The notes beneath the pieces were generated by a model that saw only the letters and a program-made list of their open reading frames with translations, did no database searches and had not been told where the DNA came from. A stretch of DNA of 64,000 nucleotides from IMG/VR virus record IMGVR_UViG_3300009081_000012, positions 1 through 64,000 of that record. One strand, 5' to 3'. Source of the stretch: a virus. Positions 1 to 56,997 of the stretch are shown in pieces. The translations under genes were made by a program, and so were the position numbers. The stretch's first letter is position 1. Each line of letters opens with the position of its first letter.

Positions 1-116
1 AAAGGAAACAATAACAGTTTATACCACGCAAGCACTAACTGTTCATAAGAGTTTTCCACGTCATATATGTAAGCTACTATGTTATGCATTTCAAGGTCTC
101 CTCTCCATAAGTTTCC

Positions 117-335
117 TTATTTCTTGGTCCACGTGATAAAGAAACCACCAAATTTATCTGATTTAGTTCTCCCTATCTCGACATCTTTTATGATCACCAG
201 CATGGCAAAAACGCCTGTAATACAGCCTATTAGCCAATATAAATACGACAAAGACACCTCAAAATACATGTCCAAAACCGCACTTATTGCTATACTTGCG
301 ATTAATATTAAAAGGCTCAAACTGCTATTTTTCAC
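117..335 (-). CDS. small membrane protein (2 TM), hypothetical
   Basis: ORF with two hydrophobic segments; AGGAGG SD upstream. Confidence 0.6.
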   Translation of the reverse strand: MKNSSLSLLILIASIAISAVLDMYFEVSLSYLYWLIGCITGVFAMLVIIKDVEIGRTKSDKFGGFFITWTKK

Positions 336-530
336 GTTCTACACCCTCCTTATTTAATATATAAATTATTGTATTTGTTATTTTTTCCCGCGGGCTCAAA
401 GAATAGCCCCCGATGTCCCCTATAAGAGTACAACTACAAGGTCTTTTACCCCGGTTTTCTGCTTTCCGGTTTCCTGCTTTCCACTTTTTTTCTTTTTCTC
501 TTTTTCCCTCCTTTTTCCCTTTTTAGACTT

Positions 531-640
531 TTTTCGGTATACTAATCGTCTTTTGTTTTTTCGGTATACAGTTCATTCGGTATACTGAATTGCACCATTC
601 GGTATACACTATTTTACGGTATACCGTATACCGAAAAATA
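531..640. repeat. cluster of (TT)CGGTATAC motifs, inverse orientation of the 1902-2103 repeat core
   Basis: ttttcggtatac, tttcggtatac, ttcggtatac, ttcggtatac, acggtataccgtataccgaaa seen directly. Confidence 0.65.
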
Positions 641-1159
641 TACTTTTCAGATATCATGGTTAAGTGAACATTATACAAAATTATTACAGTAGTTTATTCT
701 ATGTTATCAATGGGATACTGACCACCAACAATACGGCTTTCTAATACACTACATTTATTATATTATTACGGTAGGTTATGGATAGGTGGATACCTGGATA
801 CCGGCATGGTAGGATGAGGGATACGAAGGAATGAAGGACAGTTTACTAGTACATCGTATTTATACTATATGATTACAGCAGTTTAGATATGTGATACTGC
901 CACCTGAAGGATGGAATACTGGAGACTATAAAGTGGTTTACTGGTACACACAATACGGGATACTGGTATATCTTCTATTATTATACTATTATTGTATAAC
1001 ATAGCTACCAGGTGTCGATCGATCGTAATTTCGACATCGATTTTGGAATCGATCGACCGCGATGGTAAATATATAGCATAATGGTAGTATAACCATCATC
1101 CAGTACCCCGTCCTCAACCAGTTCTAACCTCTTGTATCGATTTGTAAATCTATCGATAG

Positions 1160-1426
1160 CTAAATCGACGATGAAGGAGTTCCCATATGTATAAGGGCTC
1201 CTGTTTCTTTTAGATACTCTTTAACCTCTGTATAATCAGGCATTGGCGGGAACTCACCGTCGTGAACCACCGCCCATGCTGGGATGAGCCGGTCCTTACC
1301 ATCAGAACATTTACCCAAAAATATACCTGGATCACCGGTCCATTCGACAAATTCCACTGTATAAGGAGCGTTTCCTGGTAGTGCTCTACCTGATATACCG
1401 TTATATTCGAAGTTCTTTATTATCAT
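1160..1426 (-). CDS. hypothetical protein
   Basis: 88-aa ORF, GGAGG SD. Confidence 0.65.
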   Translation of the reverse strand: MIIKNFEYNGISGRALPGNAPYTVEFVEWTGDPGIFLGKCSDGKDRLIPAWAVVHDGEFPPMPDYTEVKEYLKETGALIHMGTPSSSI

Positions 1427-1467
1427 GTTTCCTCCGCGGGAAAATTAAATAAATTCGGTCTGTTAAA

Positions 1468-1689
1468 TCATTTATTGTTAAGGATGTCTCTCAAATCAAT
1501 CGTGCCTATTTCAATTCCTTCGGGATAACCTGGAGTATTCTTATCCACTATCTTATCTATCATCTCCTGAAGTCTCTTTCTGCCGGCTAACTCCCTTAAT
1601 TCGTTGAAATATTCCATTACCATTAGTTGTCCTTCCATAGCAGAACAACGGTGTGCTCCTGCTAGGGGTTTTTTGACGGTTTCTGGCAT
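1468..1689 (-). CDS. hypothetical protein
   Basis: 73-aa ORF, AAGGAG SD. Confidence 0.65.
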   Translation of the reverse strand: MPETVKKPLAGAHRCSAMEGQLMVMEYFNELRELAGRKRLQEMIDKIVDKNTPGYPEGIEIGTIDLRDILNNK

Positions 1690-1871
1690 GACTTTTCTCC
1701 TTTCTTTTGTTGATGGTTTGTTAGTAATAGTAGTAAGTAATTGTATATATTAACATTTTTGTACCAGTATACCACACCCTATACCCACAAACATACCAGT
1801 TTGCTGTGAGTTAGTGGACGGTTTACTGGTATTATACCATAAAATAATATCATTATTATACTAAAATACCC

Positions 1872-1899
1872 TTGACAACCAGGAAATCGTGCTTATATT
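1872..1899 (+). promoter_or_regulatory. sigma70-like promoter
   Basis: TTGACA-16 nt-TATATT; same layout as five other promoters in the window. Confidence 0.7.
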
Positions 1900-1901
1900 A
1901 A

Positions 1902-2103
1902 CATTATACCGAAATAACTATAATGAACATTATACCGAAATAATAATCATTACACCGAAATAATAATGAACATTATACTGAAATAATCATTATACTGAAA
2001 TAATCATTATACCGAAATAATGACGAACATTATACCGAAATAATCATTATACCGAAATAATGATTGTTATACCGAAATAACTTTGAACATTATACCGAAA
2101 TAA
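1902..2103 (+). repeat. 10 direct repeats of CATTATACCGAAATAA (iteron/centromere-like)
   Basis: copies at about 1902, 1928, 1948, 1971, 1988, 2005, 2028, 2045, 2065 and 2088, separated by 1-10 nt linkers. Confidence 0.92.
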
Positions 2104-2115
2104 TTTGGAGGATGT

Positions 2116-2352
2116 ATGGCAGGACAAGGAAGGAAGAAAACGATATTCTTTAACGGAAGCAGATCGGTTCCTATGAGGATTGGAATTATGGAAGATATGG
2201 CGTTGGAAGACCTGGCAAAAAGAAGCGGTAAATCAAAAGCATATTTATGTAATTGTGCTATTGATTATCTATATAATAGTATAGAAGGATATGAAGTGTT
2301 GACAGATTTTCCACTGGTGTCAGAGAACGTTACCACGCAGGAGCAAATGTAA
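2116..2352 (+). CDS. ribbon-helix-helix DNA-binding protein
   Basis: SVPMRI strand, LEDLAKRSG helix and KSKAYLCNCAIDYL helix match the CopG/ParG RHH pattern; GGAGG SD. Confidence 0.75.
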   Translation: MAGQGRKKTIFFNGSRSVPMRIGIMEDMALEDLAKRSGKSKAYLCNCAIDYLYNSIEGYEVLTDFPLVSENVTTQEQM

Positions 2353-2686
2353 TCTTCTTGGTAACATAGTCATAACAATATGTTGTCTCTATTTCATACA
2401 CACGTTTGTCATTGACAATACGGGGTTGTAATTTAAGTGTTCTGTGGTCAAGATCATCTATACTATGAGTGAAAATTCTCAATTCTTCCGGGCGGACAAT
2501 AACAGCTCCTTTGAAAACGCAAGTAGGATTTCTTACCATTTCATAATGAGTTAAACACATATCTTCTATATGTATATGACTCCTCTTTATTTTATTTTTC
2601 ACACAATGTTTGGTAAAGGCTTCACTCACCTCTATTGATAATTCTCTTTGTAATTCTAAAAACCTGTATACTGGTTTTCTGCTCAT
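2330..2686 (-). CDS. hypothetical protein
   Basis: 118-aa ORF, AAGGAG SD. Confidence 0.65.
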   Translation of the reverse strand: MSRKPVYRFLELQRELSIEVSEAFTKHCVKNKIKRSHIHIEDMCLTHYEMVRNPTCVFKGAVIVRPEELRIFTHSIDDLDHRTLKLQPRIVNDKRVYEIETTYCYDYVTKKITFAPAW

Positions 2687-2760
2687 TGTTTTCTCCTTTC
2701 AAAATAGATCGGTTTACTGGTATATGTAATTGTAATTATTATACTATACAATATTATTTT

Positions 2761-2917
2761 TGGAGTGTGGAGCGAGATAGGATTTGAACCTACAAAGGGC
2801 CTTCAGTATGATGATAACAGCCCTACGTTGAAACCTTTTGGCACCGCGCCAGAATACAAACTACAAGTTTATACCCCTCATCATTTAACGGTAGCTTCCA
2901 CGCTACGTTCTCGCTCC
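2761..2917 (-). ncRNA. tRNA-like RNA (~150 nt) with 13-bp acceptor/T helix and expanded anticodon domain
   Basis: GGAGCGAG/CTCGCTCC acceptor; GTAGG-TTCAAAT-CCTAT T-arm; GTAGC/GCTAC D-arm; AGGGC/GCCCT variable arm; 3' end ...CCACACTCCA. Confidence 0.7.
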
Positions 2918-3164
2918 ATAAATTTCACTAGATATTTTTAACATGCGGTTCCGAACACCAAAAAACCACCCCCGTCCAGGAAATAGCTTCCTATGAAAAT
3001 AAATTCGGTTTTAAAACAAACAAACCCGGTCCACAACAAACAACATCTACTTTACCCAGAACTAATCTAATTAAGGCAAACAAATTCAGTACAACACTAC
3101 ATTCAAGCAAACAAATTCTGTATTCCATATCTATCTCCAGCAAACAAATTCGGTTATATACATG

Positions 3165-3211
3165 AAAGAAACCCTGTAATACCCCTCAACAGGAGAGATA
3201 TTACAGGATTA
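3165..3211 (-). terminator. intrinsic terminator after ssb
   Basis: AATCCTGTAATATCTCT...AGGGGTATTACAGGGTT hairpin followed by TCTTTC. Confidence 0.6.
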
Positions 3212-3231
3212 TTATGCCAATTGTTCTCCGA

Positions 3232-3999
3232 TTAGAACACCGGCACGTTGCTTACTCCGGCATTGTTTGCAACGGGCTGTTTCGGAACAAACCCGCCATT
3301 ACCGAAGATATCACCTGCCATATTCAACGGCGCTGGTGCCATGGGTGCCTGTGGCGGTGTAAATGCCTGTTGCACCATATTTGGCAGACTTGCCATATTC
3401 GGCAGAGTGTTCATACCGGGGATGTTTGCGACCCCAGCTTGTACGTTCGGCAGTACTACGTTCGCATAGCCGAATTTCTGACTTCCGGGAATATATGTTG
3501 CGGACTTCCGCGTTGCAATAATCTGCGCCCATATATTGTTATCCGGATGATTTTTGACATTCCAGTACTGAGGCCGTCTGCCCGCTCTGATTTCTTCATC
3601 TACGAGCTCCTGCGCCTCTTCGCCAATCCTGAACTGTGTGATGGTGAACGCAACCCTGTCAATCAGGATGGGCTGACCGTTAGCACCCACAAGAGGAACG
3701 TTGTTCTGGAAATATCTGCTCTGGAAGGTGTGCGGTACGACTGTTGCGTCGAACGCTCTTCCTTTGTTGAGGGTTTTGGCACAGAAATCAGCCAATTTGC
3801 CCCACGCTACGAACTGGAAGAAGTCAGTTCCGGCAACGCCGGTTTTCTGGTTCTTCAATCCGTTGATAGCGCAAGGGATTTTCACCCTCTGGTTAATCTG
3901 AACACCATCTGCCCGAACGTAGCCGGGCGTATAGCTCAACGGTGCACTTACTCTGAAATTCGACCCAAATCCCATAAAAATACCTGCGTTTCTACCCAT
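3232..3999 (-). CDS. ssb: single-stranded DNA-binding protein (divergent)
   Basis: TDFFQFVAWGKLADFCAKTLNKG SSB motif; P/N/M-rich tail ending VPVF; start chosen from the GAAAGGAG SD. Confidence 0.75.
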   Translation of the reverse strand: MGRNAGIFMGFGSNFRVSAPLSYTPGYVRADGVQINQRVKIPCAINGLKNQKTGVAGTDFFQFVAWGKLADFCAKTLNKGRAFDATVVPHTFQSRYFQNNVPLVGANGQPILIDRVAFTITQFRIGEEAQELVDEEIRAGRRPQYWNVKNHPDNNIWAQIIATRKSATYIPGSQKFGYANVVLPNVQAGVANIPGMNTLPNMASLPNMVQQAFTPPQAPMAPAPLNMAGDIFGNGGFVPKQPVANNAGVSNVPVF

Positions 4000-4597: not shown

Positions 4598-6154
4598 TCA
4601 GCACGCTTCCCATTGTGTTAACTGAGAACCTGGAGCTACTACAGCTTTACAGATATACTGTTTTGCTCCGTTGGCTTTGGCGTTGTCGTCTCCTTCCATT
4701 ACGTAGACGATTTTGGCGCCACCGCGTGCCATGATGGCGGTCTTGGTATACTGACCGTTGCCATCTAATTTGCCGGGATTTTGGGGCAGAACCAGTCGAC
4801 ACATCTCAACGCCGTCATTGTTGATAAACAGCTTATATGTCGGCAGTGCCTTGAACTTCCCGATGTACCCTATCAGACCGTTCGTAGTGGGTGCTTTAAC
4901 CCATCTGCCATTATGGAAGAAATTCATGGCAACTACGACCTGTTTCTCCTGCTCTGTTAACGCAATGGTGTTCTGCGCGACCAGTTCAGGATTTGAGAAT
5001 GCCTTGTCTGAATTGGTTAACTGCCCACAGGCAAAGATAGCATGGAAGCATTTTGTATAAACGCCTCTTGCTATGTCGCTGGTCTGTTGTGCTGATAACC
5101 CTGTTTTTGGCAGAGTTACCTTTACTCCAGTATGCTGGTCTGCCGTCATGGTTGAGAATGTTGCCTGAGCCATGGGTATGGGTGCAGGTTGAGGAGTGGC
5201 GACAGCTATCGGTTGAGGAGGTGCCATGGTAGCTTTGGCGAATTCAACCATACCACCAGAGCCAGCATAATTCTCATCGAAGTCATCGTCAGTTGCGGTG
5301 GCAAATTCACCATAGATGCCAGGCTCGTTGTCGAACCCGTCGTCCCAGCCATCATCTGCGAACTGAACAGGAGCATTCATAGAAGTTGTTGCCGAAGCCA
5401 TGGCGGGTGCGACAGCTGTTTGAACCGGTGCTGAGACTGTTTGTACCGGTACCTGGATAGGAGGAGCTTCAGCTGTCAGAGACGGAGCAATTGAGACAAC
5501 GGCCATCTTTGGTAAAGATGTCCATCTGATGTCGTTGTCTTCAGCCCCTGAAGCGAAGTGCATGTACGCTCTGAATGTACTCAGCTTCAGTTCGAGTGTA
5601 CTTTCCGTGGGCTTATACCAAACCCACAAACCTTCATCGAACATCCGCTTCTGAGTGTCAAAGAAGTCTCCTTCTTTTGCACCCTGAGCCAGCTCGTTCA
5701 TCTGCTCCCGGATGAATTCACAACTTCCGGGTTCAAGGGCATAATCCCTCGCTATCTCGAACGCCATCACTTTTGCTGAAGCTGAAACATCTTCTTCAGA
5801 CAGTTCCGGGTCATAAAGATGCAACGCCTCATGAATGATTGAGACGTACATATTATGCCAGAAGAGCGCGTTGATAGAAATCCCCTGCATCTCTGTTTCG
5901 TCTATGATTTTGTCATATGACTTGCAGAAGGTGTGCATGAGATTGATGACTACAGCCCCGCTGTCAGGGGCGCAGTTCGCCAATTCACCCTTCGGAGCTG
6001 TGAGGCTGAACACCACCAGTTTTATCGGACAGGAGCGTTCCGTTCTTCTGGCCATCTCCTGGAAAATGGTGTCCATGTTTCTGATTGCTTTGGTACCACC
6101 GACTAAGCTGGCACCGATAACCGCGGTTTCATTGTTCGTTAGACTATAAATCAT
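4598..6154 (-). CDS. large protein with HExxH metallopeptidase-like N-domain, A/P/D-rich linker and unknown C-domain
   Basis: IIHEALHL motif; start at MIYSL from the GAAAGGAG SD. Confidence 0.65.
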   Translation of the reverse strand: MIYSLTNNETAVIGASLVGGTKAIRNMDTIFQEMARRTERSCPIKLVVFSLTAPKGELANCAPDSGAVVINLMHTFCKSYDKIIDETEMQGISINALFWHNMYVSIIHEALHLYDPELSEEDVSASAKVMAFEIARDYALEPGSCEFIREQMNELAQGAKEGDFFDTQKRMFDEGLWVWYKPTESTLELKLSTFRAYMHFASGAEDNDIRWTSLPKMAVVSIAPSLTAEAPPIQVPVQTVSAPVQTAVAPAMASATTSMNAPVQFADDGWDDGFDNEPGIYGEFATATDDDFDENYAGSGGMVEFAKATMAPPQPIAVATPQPAPIPMAQATFSTMTADQHTGVKVTLPKTGLSAQQTSDIARGVYTKCFHAIFACGQLTNSDKAFSNPELVAQNTIALTEQEKQVVVAMNFFHNGRWVKAPTTNGLIGYIGKFKALPTYKLFINNDGVEMCRLVLPQNPGKLDGNGQYTKTAIMARGGAKIVYVMEGDDNAKANGAKQYICKAVVAPGSQLTQWEAC

Positions 6155-6169
6155 AATAAATCTCCTTTC

Positions 6170-6790
6170 GGGGTAAATACCCCAGTAGCGACGCGTAATT
6201 GCGTCTGTTTCAATTAAACTCTCAAAAAACCAGTCCCCAGACGAACCCAGAACCAGTTCTTCGAGAGTTACTAAATGGTGGTACATCCACCATCAAAAAA
6301 ACGGTAAAACGAAAAAGCGAACCCCGGTAGACTGTGGGAACTGCTGTACGGGGCTCTGGTAGGAACGGTGTCCGAAAAGCCGGAGGCTTACTGGAGCGAC
6401 GAAGTTGCGGAAGTAAGCCGGAGGCGCCAAGCGAACCGGCGACTGTGTAGAGAGCGGTTTGCTGGTATCTGCTTCTCGGTAAGCTGTAGGTTGGTCGAGC
6501 CCGACCTTCAGGTCGTTGGCGAGAGCAGGCTGAGCGGTTTGCTGTTTAAACCGCGAAGAGCTGTAAAATCTTAAAGACGCCCACGCCTGCTCCCGGTTGT
6601 TTGGGAGCGGGCGGGGGCATCCTGTTAGAACAAGAAACAGTTTGATGAGCGAAGATTGATGGATAGGCGGCGCGCTAGCGCCGCCGCACTGGGTCGCGTT
6701 ATCCACGAAGTGGCATCGGAAGCATTGTAGTAGCCCCCAGCACTGTAAATGTAAAATATGATTTTGTGACATTGCATTTTGCACCCCGCT
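6170..6790. other. GC-rich non-coding hairpin field (structured RNA or ssDNA element)
   Basis: at least 9 hairpins, e.g. GGCTTACT..AGTAAGCC, CGCCTGCTCCC..GGGAGCGGGCG, GGCGGCGC-GCTA-GCGCCGCC, CCAC-GAA-GTGG. Confidence 0.6.
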
Positions 6791-52446: not shown

Positions 52447-52974
52447 ATGCAAAAAGTTTATGATTTTGTTGAGGAACGTTCTGAAGAAGATAAGGAATAT
52501 GAAGAATTTATATTGAAAGCTGTACCAATAGAGTATCAAGCGCCATTTTGGAAAGTAACATATCCATTTTTAAGAAGTAATGTGTTTACACAATGGATAA
52601 CACAATCAAAAGCACAAAGTTGGATGAGGCTATTTAGTTGTACTATCAGAGCAGACATGAACAACAAAATAGCTTCATTTTTATATAAAAAATATTATTT
52701 AGGCAAACACAAAATAGTGGCGAGATTTACTCAAGACGGTTTAGCTCAGTCTCTTGGATATAAAGATAGAAGAGGCGTAAATAATCACATAGTTAAACTT
52801 GAAAAGGAAGGCGTAATAAAAGTCATACCAGAAAAATGGAATAATAGATATATAAGGGTGTATGATTTTGGAACCTGGTACGAAGTCGATAATACAAAAA
52901 TAGAACGCTTGTATTTTGACTCGGTAATGAGAAAAAATATAGGTGAATCTGTACTAAAAGAGTTAGAAGGATAG
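52447..52974 (+). CDS. winged-helix protein, possible replication initiator
   Basis: FTQDGLAQSLGYKDRRGVNNHIVKLEKEGVI; followed by tandem palindromic repeats. Confidence 0.55.
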   Translation: MQKVYDFVEERSEEDKEYEEFILKAVPIEYQAPFWKVTYPFLRSNVFTQWITQSKAQSWMRLFSCTIRADMNNKIASFLYKKYYLGKHKIVARFTQDGLAQSLGYKDRRGVNNHIVKLEKEGVIKVIPEKWNNRYIRVYDFGTWYEVDNTKIERLYFDSVMRKNIGESVLKELEG

Positions 52975-52990
52975 GTGTCAAAAATAAGCC

Positions 52991-53035
52991 ATGTCCACAA
53001 AATTTGGACATCGATGTCCACAAAATTTGGACATC
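52991..53035. repeat. tandem pair of palindromic ATGTCCA-CAAAATT-TGGACAT units
   Basis: two 23-bp-period copies seen directly. Confidence 0.85.
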
Positions 53036-53414
53036 CTATATAATAGAATAGATAACACTAGAGAATAGAAAACAGTATACTAAAGTATACAGAAATTTCT
53101 TTTTTAATAAAATAATAAAGAAAGCTTTAACAGAAAAATTTGGAGTGAGAAAAACGATGGTTAGTGATATTGACATTTATGTTGCCAAAAGAAAAATGAG
53201 ACTTAAAAATTCAAACTACTGTTTGAGCTTTATTTCAACCTTATGGAAAGGTGAGGTTGTTATGTGCTCTTTTGACAATTTACAGAACAAAATTAGTAGT
53301 TTATTTAGTATCCAAACATTTGATGAAGAAAGTTTTTTACAATTAGAAAATGTCATAAAAGAATTTATCGATGAATTGTCATATAACAATACACAAAAAA
53401 ATTAATAAAACTAC

Positions 53415-55948: not shown

Positions 55949-55998
55949 GGCAATAGGAAGATACTATGGATGCTTTGTGGTTCAAAGGAGGAACACAA

Positions 55999-56997
55999 AT
56001 GGGAAAAAGAATAGGAATCGATATAGGTACAAATATGATTGTAGCTGCTTATGCTGATGAAAATGAAACACCAATATTTAAAATGCAAAGGGATGCTTTT
56101 TATAGAATTATCCCAAAGACTGAGGTTAATAGAAACAGTATAAGAATTTCATTGGATAAAAGAGGCGCCAGTTATATTGTAGACACCGATGGTTCGTTTA
56201 TAATTGTAGGCGAGGATGCGCTTGAGATAGCTATAGAAAGAAACGATAAGGCACAAAGACCTATGCAAAGAGGAGTGATTTCACCAAAGGAAAAAGCTTC
56301 TTTACCTATGTTAAAACTCATTATAGAGAATCTTATAGGACTTGGTTCTGAAGGTGATGTGTGTATATATTCAGTTCCAGGAAAACCGATAGATGCCTCA
56401 TTTGATATTTCATATCATACAGAAATGATGGGTTTATATCTTAAACAGATGGGCTATAATGCACAGCCCATAAACGAAGCTTTTGCAATAGCTTTATCAG
56501 AACTTTTAGATGATGGTTTAACAGGGGTGTGTATATCATACGGTGCTGGTATGACAAATGTGGTAGTAGTGCATGAAGGAGATCCGTTGGTTGAATTTAG
56601 TGTCACCAGAGCTGGTGATTTTATAGATTTTTCAGTAGGTAATGCTCTTGATGTATCTCCAAGTTTAGTACAGATGGAGAAAGAAGCCGGTACGGATTTG
56701 TTCAATCCTACTTCTAAAATAATGGAAGCGGTGTCAGTATATTACACGTCTGTGATTAATTACACATTACAGAATATAGCGTATGAACTAAAACAACGTG
56801 AGAAAACACTTCCTATATTTAGAAATCAAGTTCCTATAGTAGTATCGGGCGGATTAACGTTGGCAGAAGGTTTTGTAAAGAAAGTTGAAGAATCATTATT
56901 AAATGTTGAGCTGCCATTTAGGATTAGTAGTGTAAGACGTGCAGCAGAGCCTATGAAAGCTGTGGCTCATGGTTGTCTTCTTGCAGCAAGTATTTAA
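55999..56997 (+). CDS. actin-fold ATPase (MreB/ParM/FtsA superfamily)
   Basis: GIDIGT (phosphate 1), INEAFA, SYGAGMTN (phosphate 2), VSGG (adenosine), AVAHG. Confidence 0.82.
   Translation: MGKRIGIDIGTNMIVAAYADENETPIFKMQRDAFYRIIPKTEVNRNSIRISLDKRGASYIVDTDGSFIIVGEDALEIAIERNDKAQRPMQRGVISPKEKASLPMLKLIIENLIGLGSEGDVCIYSVPGKPIDASFDISYHTEMMGLYLKQMGYNAQPINEAFAIALSELLDDGLTGVCISYGAGMTNVVVVHEGDPLVEFSVTRAGDFIDFSVGNALDVSPSLVQMEKEAGTDLFNPTSKIMEAVSVYYTSVINYTLQNIAYELKQREKTLPIFRNQVPIVVSGGLTLAEGFVKKVEESLLNVELPFRISSVRRAAEPMKAVAHGCLLAASI

Follow-up and report, generated by a model that had tools for sequence, protein, structure and literature searches.

We describe a promoter, repeat array and gene at the left end of a 64,000-nucleotide stretch of DNA (the window), which is the first 64 kb of the linear 76,981-bp IMG/VR virus record IMGVR_UViG_3300009081_000012 from an uncultured phage. 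At this locus, a gene for a 78-amino-acid (aa) protein, very probably of the ribbon-helix-helix (RHH) fold, stands behind a sigma70-type promoter and ten direct 16-bp repeats, and a second cluster with the same core lies 1265 bp to the left of the main array and is inverted relative to it. We tentatively favour a reading in which the RHH protein coats its own start site, its leader and the left cluster, and acts as a cooperative autorepressor controlling a small early cassette.

A first-pass annotation, made from the letters of the window alone, had placed ten repeats between a TTGACA promoter and an RHH gene, and this arrangement was borne out (Table 1). The CATTATACCGAAATAA units start at positions 1902, 1928, 1948, 1971, 1988, 2005, 2028, 2045, 2065 and 2088; six are exact, three carry one mismatch and one carries two. 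The promoter scores 11/12 and is the top match to the sigma70 pattern within 1-3300. Because it ends 3 bp before the first unit, the predicted transcription start lies within the first repeat core; counting the usual distance from the -10 element, we place this start at about 1905-1907. The leader is 205 bp long, with the first site at the start point and nine further sites downstream. The unit-to-unit spacings are 26, 20, 23, 17, 17, 23, 17, 20 and 23 bp, each equal to 17 plus a multiple of 3; a regular, helically phased iteron spacing was not found in the ten-unit array (17-26 bp). Tandem Repeats Finder (TRF) reported a period of 57/60 with 3.0 copies, in which a superunit of 57-60 bp holds three sites. 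These results suggest that the array grew through triplet duplication. Two other readings of the array were ruled out: a CRISPR-like one by spacers of 1-10 bp, and a coding one by stops in every frame, which arise because each unit contains TAA and the spacings are 2 mod 3.

About five inverted copies of the same core had been noted at 531-640. We found five minus-strand cores in this cluster (533, 560, 576, 598 and 615) and, in addition, plus-strand copies, with a core at 627. Copies with one mismatch were found at 581 and 620, and the cluster also holds the near-palindromes TTCGGTATACTGAA and CGGTATACCG. The locus therefore has 16 sites in total, ten in the array and six in the left cluster, and the part common to both clusters is the 9-mer TATACCGAA. 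The two clusters, a locus of 1.6 kb, contain all 12 exact TATACCGAA 9-mers found in the 76,981-bp record, a distribution that points to a local rather than a global factor. With up to one mismatch allowed, a 10-mer gave 21 matches; the expectation was 6.1 +/- 2.6, and none of 100 shuffles gave as many. Each of the two clusters has the same orientation with respect to the transcription that passes through it.

We examined the gene product by sequence and by predicted structure. The 78-aa protein had no Pfam match at E <= 0.1, none to RHH_1 at E <= 1 and no PHROG match, and its top sequence match in the PDB was a designed beta-alpha-alpha protein with E = 1. The AlphaFold2 monomer model had a predicted local distance difference test (pLDDT) score of 62.6 overall and of 78-91 over residues 21-50, with helices at 24-37, 41-54 and 56-63, a predicted strand PMRIGI and a GKSK turn at 38-41. 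Foldseek matches were individually weak and were mostly RHH proteins. In a structure search independent of Foldseek (VIA wide), RHH domains occupied about 45 of the top 50 rows; the top row was the PutA RHH (Z 4.7, root-mean-square deviation 2.3 over 44 residues), and CopA, omega, ParG, Arc, NikR, SvtR and antitoxin RHHs were among the others. The tiny size of the domain accounts for the low Z values, and the monomer model does not form the strand. The Atlas structure neighbours were RHH_1/RHH_3 clusters. On the strength of these models we accept with good confidence, at the level of fold, that the product is an RHH protein, in agreement with its first assignment. A beta-alpha-alpha fold with a G-x-S/T-x turn is predicted, and a match to a curated sequence family is lacking.

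The basic N-terminal tail (residues 1-17; MAGQGRKK..FFNGS) is conserved and is predicted to be disordered (pLDDT below 50). Features conserved throughout the family are the tail pattern ..KR..F.NGS, R21 in the strand PMRIGI and the turn before helix 2, which reads GKSK (G38/S40) in close relatives and of which only S40 is invariant. A conserved motif, GYEVLTDFP, is present at the C-terminus and has the family form GY..L.DFP. No other open reading frame (ORF) of the record shares this tail motif.

The family is very small. An exhaustive HMMER search of 1.84 billion representatives returned four true relatives only, and together with a word-based search it gave about six 90% clusters among 15 billion proteins. 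All members are metagenomic, and nearly all lie on contigs of 0.5-2.6 kb. In a distant member from a metagenome, P0005 (149 aa), the RHH domain is fused to a C-terminal HNH nuclease, which suggests a further use of the fold, to target a probable homing endonuclease to DNA. When viral contigs were searched with the RHH protein and with P0004, P0005 and P0006, the sole match was to the HNH part of P0005 and no relative was recovered. The protein represents a new, very rare and unannotated sequence family of the RHH superfamily.

A metagenome scan for the locus returned only two further loci, L009 and L010, both from one sample. L009 is an identical copy, including the whole array. L010 is a variant whose protein is 79% identical and whose contig starts within the last repeat; the core and its distance to the ribosome-binding site (RBS) are the same. 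It thus appears that the site stays constant while the protein changes at positions that do not face the DNA. Assemblies seem prone to breaking at such arrays, and this would account for the short contigs on which all RHH relatives lie. Two adjacent full units were not found in the viral contigs scanned. Two cores within 30 nt occurred at 111 loci in viral contigs, approximately the number expected by chance, and the loci with multiple paired cores were in-frame coding repeats of giant-virus metagenome-assembled genomes, without an RHH relative. A different array was seen in G003, a 189-kb relative, in which about ten copies of CTAGTATTATCT / CTAGTACTACCTAAA motifs (locus L026, 2570-2716), unrelated to the array of the window, end at a TTGACA-17-TATAAT promoter on the border between a GC-richer leftward block and rightward genes. 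G003 has no RHH protein of the family of the window. The position of the G003 array at a promoter suggests that iterated motifs at early promoters are a regulatory habit of this phage group.

We propose the following course of events for the autorepressor. The 78-aa protein would dimerise through its ribbon-helix-helix, and the beta-ribbon would read the TATACCGAA core. The host-type promoter of the RHH gene would fire early, and the accumulating protein would coat the leader, so that initiation, promoter escape and elongation would be blocked. Coating of both the start site and the leader would give steep negative autoregulation. The same protein may also occupy the six sites of the left cluster, 1.27 kb away, which lie in the path of leftward transcription toward the membrane-protein gene at 117-335; this gene is a possible second regulated target. 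A bridge between the two clusters could then loop out the two genes that lie between them. What the analysis shows is the anatomy, the confinement of the sites to this locus and the RHH-type fold; that the protein binds, represses, acts cooperatively and loops the DNA is our inference.

The anatomy of the locus supports this proposal. Promoter, array, RBS and gene are contiguous, the first core is at the predicted start site, and the clusters point away from the two tiny orphan genes that they enclose. The RHH transcript is monocistronic, the neighbouring gene is convergent, and the operon contains no nucleoside triphosphatase (NTPase) partner. Three points weigh against the proposal. Sixteen sites are far above what an RHH autorepressor needs, since Arc, Mnt, CopG and MetJ use 1-5 sites, and the number is typical of centromeres. 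The conserved disordered basic N-terminal tail and the conserved C-terminal motif suggest a protein partner. Finally, the comparative support is thin, as it comes from two extra loci of one metagenome. The first-pass annotation had listed a simple autorepressor and an iteron origin as alternatives, and we rank the former above the latter. If the autorepressor is correct, it would be another way in which large uncultured phages wire the timing of early genes, with an unusually large 16-site operator. The pair of repressor and operator would also be useful for being compact and orthogonal, and the locus would exemplify iterated-site regulation in huge phages.

Table 1. Coordinates of the features of the RHH locus and of the distant actin gene in the window.
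Feature	Position	Strand	Remarks
72-aa predicted membrane protein gene	117..335	-	strong RBS AAGGAGG; first gene leftward (downstream) of the left cluster
Second cluster of GTATACCGAA cores	531..640	-	five minus-strand and one or two plus-strand cores; cores span 532-636
Degenerate unit copy CATTATACAAAATTA, without CG	668..683	+	inside a 34-bp stretch 74% like the promoter/first-repeat region
88-aa gene, no family match	1160..1426	-	enclosed between the clusters; six related clusters, all on 0.8-2.6 kb contigs
73-aa gene, no family match	1468..1689	-	enclosed between the clusters; TATAAT-type promoter motif 1863-1852
Sigma70-type promoter TTGACA-16-TATATT of the RHH gene	1872..1899	+	TTGACA 1872-1877, TATATT 1894-1899
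Ten direct 16-bp units CATTATACCGAAATAA	1902..2103	+	fill the whole 5' leader
Shine-Dalgarno GGAGG	2106..2110	+	5 nt before the ATG at 2116
78-aa RHH protein gene	2116..2352	+	fold-level assignment from predicted structure
Volactin-family actin ORF	55966..56997	+	Pfam Volactin PF25216, E 5.7e-64

The setting of the locus bears on the other readings. From the completeness of 28% that CheckV estimated for the record, the whole phage genome probably exceeds 200 kb by a wide margin. With 72% of the genome unsequenced, the absence of RHH_1, ParA, tubulin and integrase from the record is weak evidence. Since the window starts at the beginning of the record, the RHH locus lies about 2 kb from a contig end. 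It belongs to a leftward-transcribed block (1-16 kb) with a GC content of 36-48%, compared with 29-38% in the rightward block, whose genes include terminase, PhoH, ClpP and lysozyme. Transcription diverges at about 16 kb, where the skew also has its minimum. Leftward products within 1-21000 were SSB-like, YspA/SLOG, nucleotidyltransferase (NTase), NADAR and DUF6011 proteins. The ORFs of the first 21 kb have no homologue in the five closest relatives, bar one weak match, and the late region of the window is collinear with them. By these sequence comparisons, the block 1-21000 is a variable accessory or early block.

The strongest competitor, in our view possible but unlikely, is a centromere-like site, in which the RHH protein would be a centromere-binding protein and the 10+6 sites would build a partition or positioning complex. 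Its motor could be a host NTPase, a phage NTPase encoded in the unsequenced 72%, or an NTPase-free mechanism like that of StbA/stbS, and any autorepression would then be secondary, as it is for ParG, omega and ParR. This reading fits the second cluster and the presence of ten direct repeats at the promoter that drives the binding protein. R1 parC has ten repeats, and stbS has 2x5 repeats without a plasmid NTPase (PMC5016525; bioRxiv 10.1101/2022.04.29.490116). The confinement of the sites to one locus and the resemblance of an RHH protein with a disordered basic N-terminal tail to type Ib ParG and omega point in the same direction. The 17-26 bp spacing without helical phase counts against it; however, the parH centromere tolerates rearranged geometry (PMC3130281), so the irregular spacing is not fatal. 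Also against this reading are the lack of an NTPase in the operon and the position of the locus in a variable block that relatives lack. Neither ParA (AAA_31) nor tubulin homologues were found in the 77-kb, 28%-complete record, and no ParA is adjacent to the RHH gene. No integrase or other plasmid-prophage sign was found in the same incomplete record. In addition, the whole array is a transcribed leader and does not flank the promoter. If this reading were true, partition-type nucleoprotein complexes would be extended to huge phages.

A replication origin is more doubtful still. Here, the inverted iteron clusters would flank a 520-bp palindrome-rich zone, and the RHH protein would be an origin-binding or copy-control factor. 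The two clusters do flank a non-coding, palindrome- and motif-dense zone of this length, which includes a TCGA-rich dyad at 1014-1057. The locus is near the SSB-like gene and other early DNA-metabolism genes, and the layout loosely recalls P1, where iterons lie on both sides of repA. However, an adjacent gene for Rep, helicase(-loader) or primase was not found, and we know of no RHH replication initiator. The spacing is out of phase, the region is not conserved in relatives, and the divergence and skew minimum at about 16 kb is away from the locus.

The first-pass annotation had tentatively paired the RHH locus with a distant actin, proposed as the possible motor of a split partition or genome-positioning system. 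The actin fold of that ORF was confirmed, while its start was corrected from 55999, which is internal, to 55966. The gene is 54 kb from the RHH locus and encodes the sole cytomotive NTPase found in the record. Relatives of this actin occur in ten viral records with 34-79% identity, and the actin is widespread. Most of these records are fragments; one is a complete 427-kb genome with terminal repeats, and one is a 189-kb record that is 72% complete. None of the ten carried the RHH family at E <= 1, whereas an identical search recovered the RHH gene of the window itself at E 3e-42. The relatives thus carry the actin without the RHH family, which is one half of the outcome that the first-pass annotation had named as refuting the pairing, and the RHH block is absent from the five closest; TATACCGAA arrays were not scanned for in those relatives.

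The actin has conserved companions of its own. In the window, the gene order is ClpP, a 203-aa coiled-coil protein, actin and a GH108 lysozyme. The coiled-coil gene directly precedes actin in all five closest relatives, and ClpP is kept in four; in the fifth (L015), the locus starts at the coiled-coil gene and ClpP is outside the view. We also observed a 175-aa gene at 52447-52974 followed by two copies of a 23-bp palindrome-containing unit (52991-53035) and then directly by TATAAT. At the syntenic place in G003 and G005, two to three copies of differing palindromes follow a gene of similar size and precede TATAAT. In three loci (window 52447-53060, L014 3570-4185 and L016 1136-1740), the genes encode 175-188 aa and the palindromes differ from phage to phage (ATGTCCA-N7-TGGACAT; GTAGTGAAATTCACTAC; AATCCCAAAAAGTGGGAT). 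This gene and its palindromes, 2-3 kb upstream of the ClpP/coiled-coil/actin block, look like a covarying regulator/operator pair at a conserved position. As judged from synteny, the conserved companions of the actin are the upstream coiled-coil gene and this regulator/palindrome pair.

We give very little credence to the view that the array and RHH protein form a cargo-attachment site of a huge phage, that is, a split centromere hooked to the volactin-like actin or to an unknown or host motor. We regard its specific form as very unlikely: a type II system in two parts, with the RHH tail docked on the actin and with filaments that would move the array-bearing DNA. It has in its favour that no other cytomotive NTPase was found and that the conserved C-terminal motif follows the fold, where ParR has its ParM-binding tail. 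Yet the two genes lie in different blocks, with the coiled-coil/actin synteny conserved, and about six RHH clusters among 15 billion proteins stand against a widespread actin. No TATACCGAA core and no array-like repeats were found near the actin, and the covarying regulator/palindrome pair is much closer to its operon. No docking motif common to the RHH tail and any other ORF, the coiled-coil protein included, was found. With the actin in a conserved core beside its own neighbour and the RHH locus in a variable block, the pairing is without comparative support. An actin- or motor-linked centromere would be the first described case of actin-linked DNA positioning in a huge phage; the negative outcome is useful in that the link to the phage actin fails on comparison with relatives.

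Control at the RNA level, by UAUACCGAA repeats in two outward-reading leaders that would fold or bind an RNA-binding factor and so control translation or stability, has a similarly slim chance: the clusters share orientation relative to the crossing transcription and the leader folds better than shuffles (z -3.4 and -2.4), but shared orientation of two clusters is a 50% chance event, the minimum free energy structure has an ensemble frequency of 0.0006 with a nearly empty centroid, no known RNA family (Rfam) was found within 1-3500, and the inverted and palindromic copies of the left cluster fit recognition of duplex DNA.

Several further elements were observed around the locus. The RHH gene has as neighbours the 73-, 88- and 118-aa proteins without a family match and the SSB-like gene; the 73-aa product has one other cluster only among 5.8e9 proteins. 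Between the clusters, the dyad at 1014-1057 reads GTCGATCGATCG...CGATCGAC, and at least six further ATCGAT/ATCGAC motifs are present in the non-coding zone (1014-1170). A minus-strand promoter-like module, TAGTATAATAAT followed by ATACCAGTAAACCG, which differs from the RHH promoter, recurs upstream of small leftward genes at 934-988, 1819-1863 and 2710-2746. Between the membrane-protein gene and the left cluster is a long pyrimidine tract (451-524; purine-rich in the leftward RNA) that contains a 15-bp tandem CCGGTTTCCTGCTTT x2. Five copies of (A/G)CAAA(C/T)AAATTC(N)GT were seen at 2997-3158, between a tRNA-like element (2761-2917) and a terminator-like hairpin (3170-3210) after the SSB gene, and another at 1447-1463. 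Three of the 2997-3158 repeats read ACCGAATTT on the minus strand and have ACCGAA in common with the RHH core. Further into the leftward block, 4598-6286 (-) encodes a 562-aa protein with a HEALH zinc-protease-like motif, a long Ala/Pro-rich linker and no family match. A weak relative of it is found at the very start of contig G005, which suggests that assemblies tend to break in that neighbourhood.

Finally, we compared the locus with known systems. Its likeness in layout to RHH-bound repeat centromere and operator sites (parC, parH and the omega sites), which had been pointed out at first pass, is fair. Arc and Mnt of P22 and plasmid CopG likewise have the RHH fold and operators that overlap the regulated promoter, but they use one or two operator half-site pairs, compared with 16 sites over 1.6 kb in the phage. 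ParR/parC of plasmid R1 likewise has ten direct repeats in two clusters at the promoter of an RHH adaptor operon, and the adaptor autorepresses. In R1, however, helically phased iterons of 11 bp flank the promoter in two groups of five, and the operon also contains parM. The phage locus shares with type II ParMRC a direct-repeat array at the promoter, but all ten units are irregularly spaced and lie downstream of it, starting 3 bp after the -10 element. No actin in the same operon, no phased spacing and no co-inheritance with the actin were found. The locus is not a type II ParMRC member.

ParG/parH of TP228 and omega of pSM19035, which are type Ib systems, likewise have a small RHH protein (about 70-76 aa) with a disordered N-terminal tail, and such a flexible tail is predicted for residues 1-17 of the phage protein. 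Their short-box arrays with AT-rich spacers lie at their own promoter and double as operator and centromere; changes in geometry are tolerated by parH. They differ in being encoded directly behind a ParA-type ATPase, none of which was found in the 28%-complete phage record, and in their boxes of 4 or 7 bp at a 7-8-bp pitch, compared with a 9-bp core at 17-26 bp in the phage. They have no detectable sequence homology to the phage RHH protein. StbA/stbS of R388 likewise comprises one small DNA-binding protein, whose own promoter carries two sets of direct 9-bp repeats, ten in all. It has no element-encoded NTPase, and StbA is both a repressor and a segregation factor. StbA differs in being a helix-turn-helix (PadR-like) protein, in its strictly 11-bp phased repeats and in belonging to a plasmid rather than a phage. 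By analogy, these comparisons suggest that the phage module would work most like ParG, omega and ParR on their repeat arrays, without an adjacent NTPase, as in StbA/stbS.

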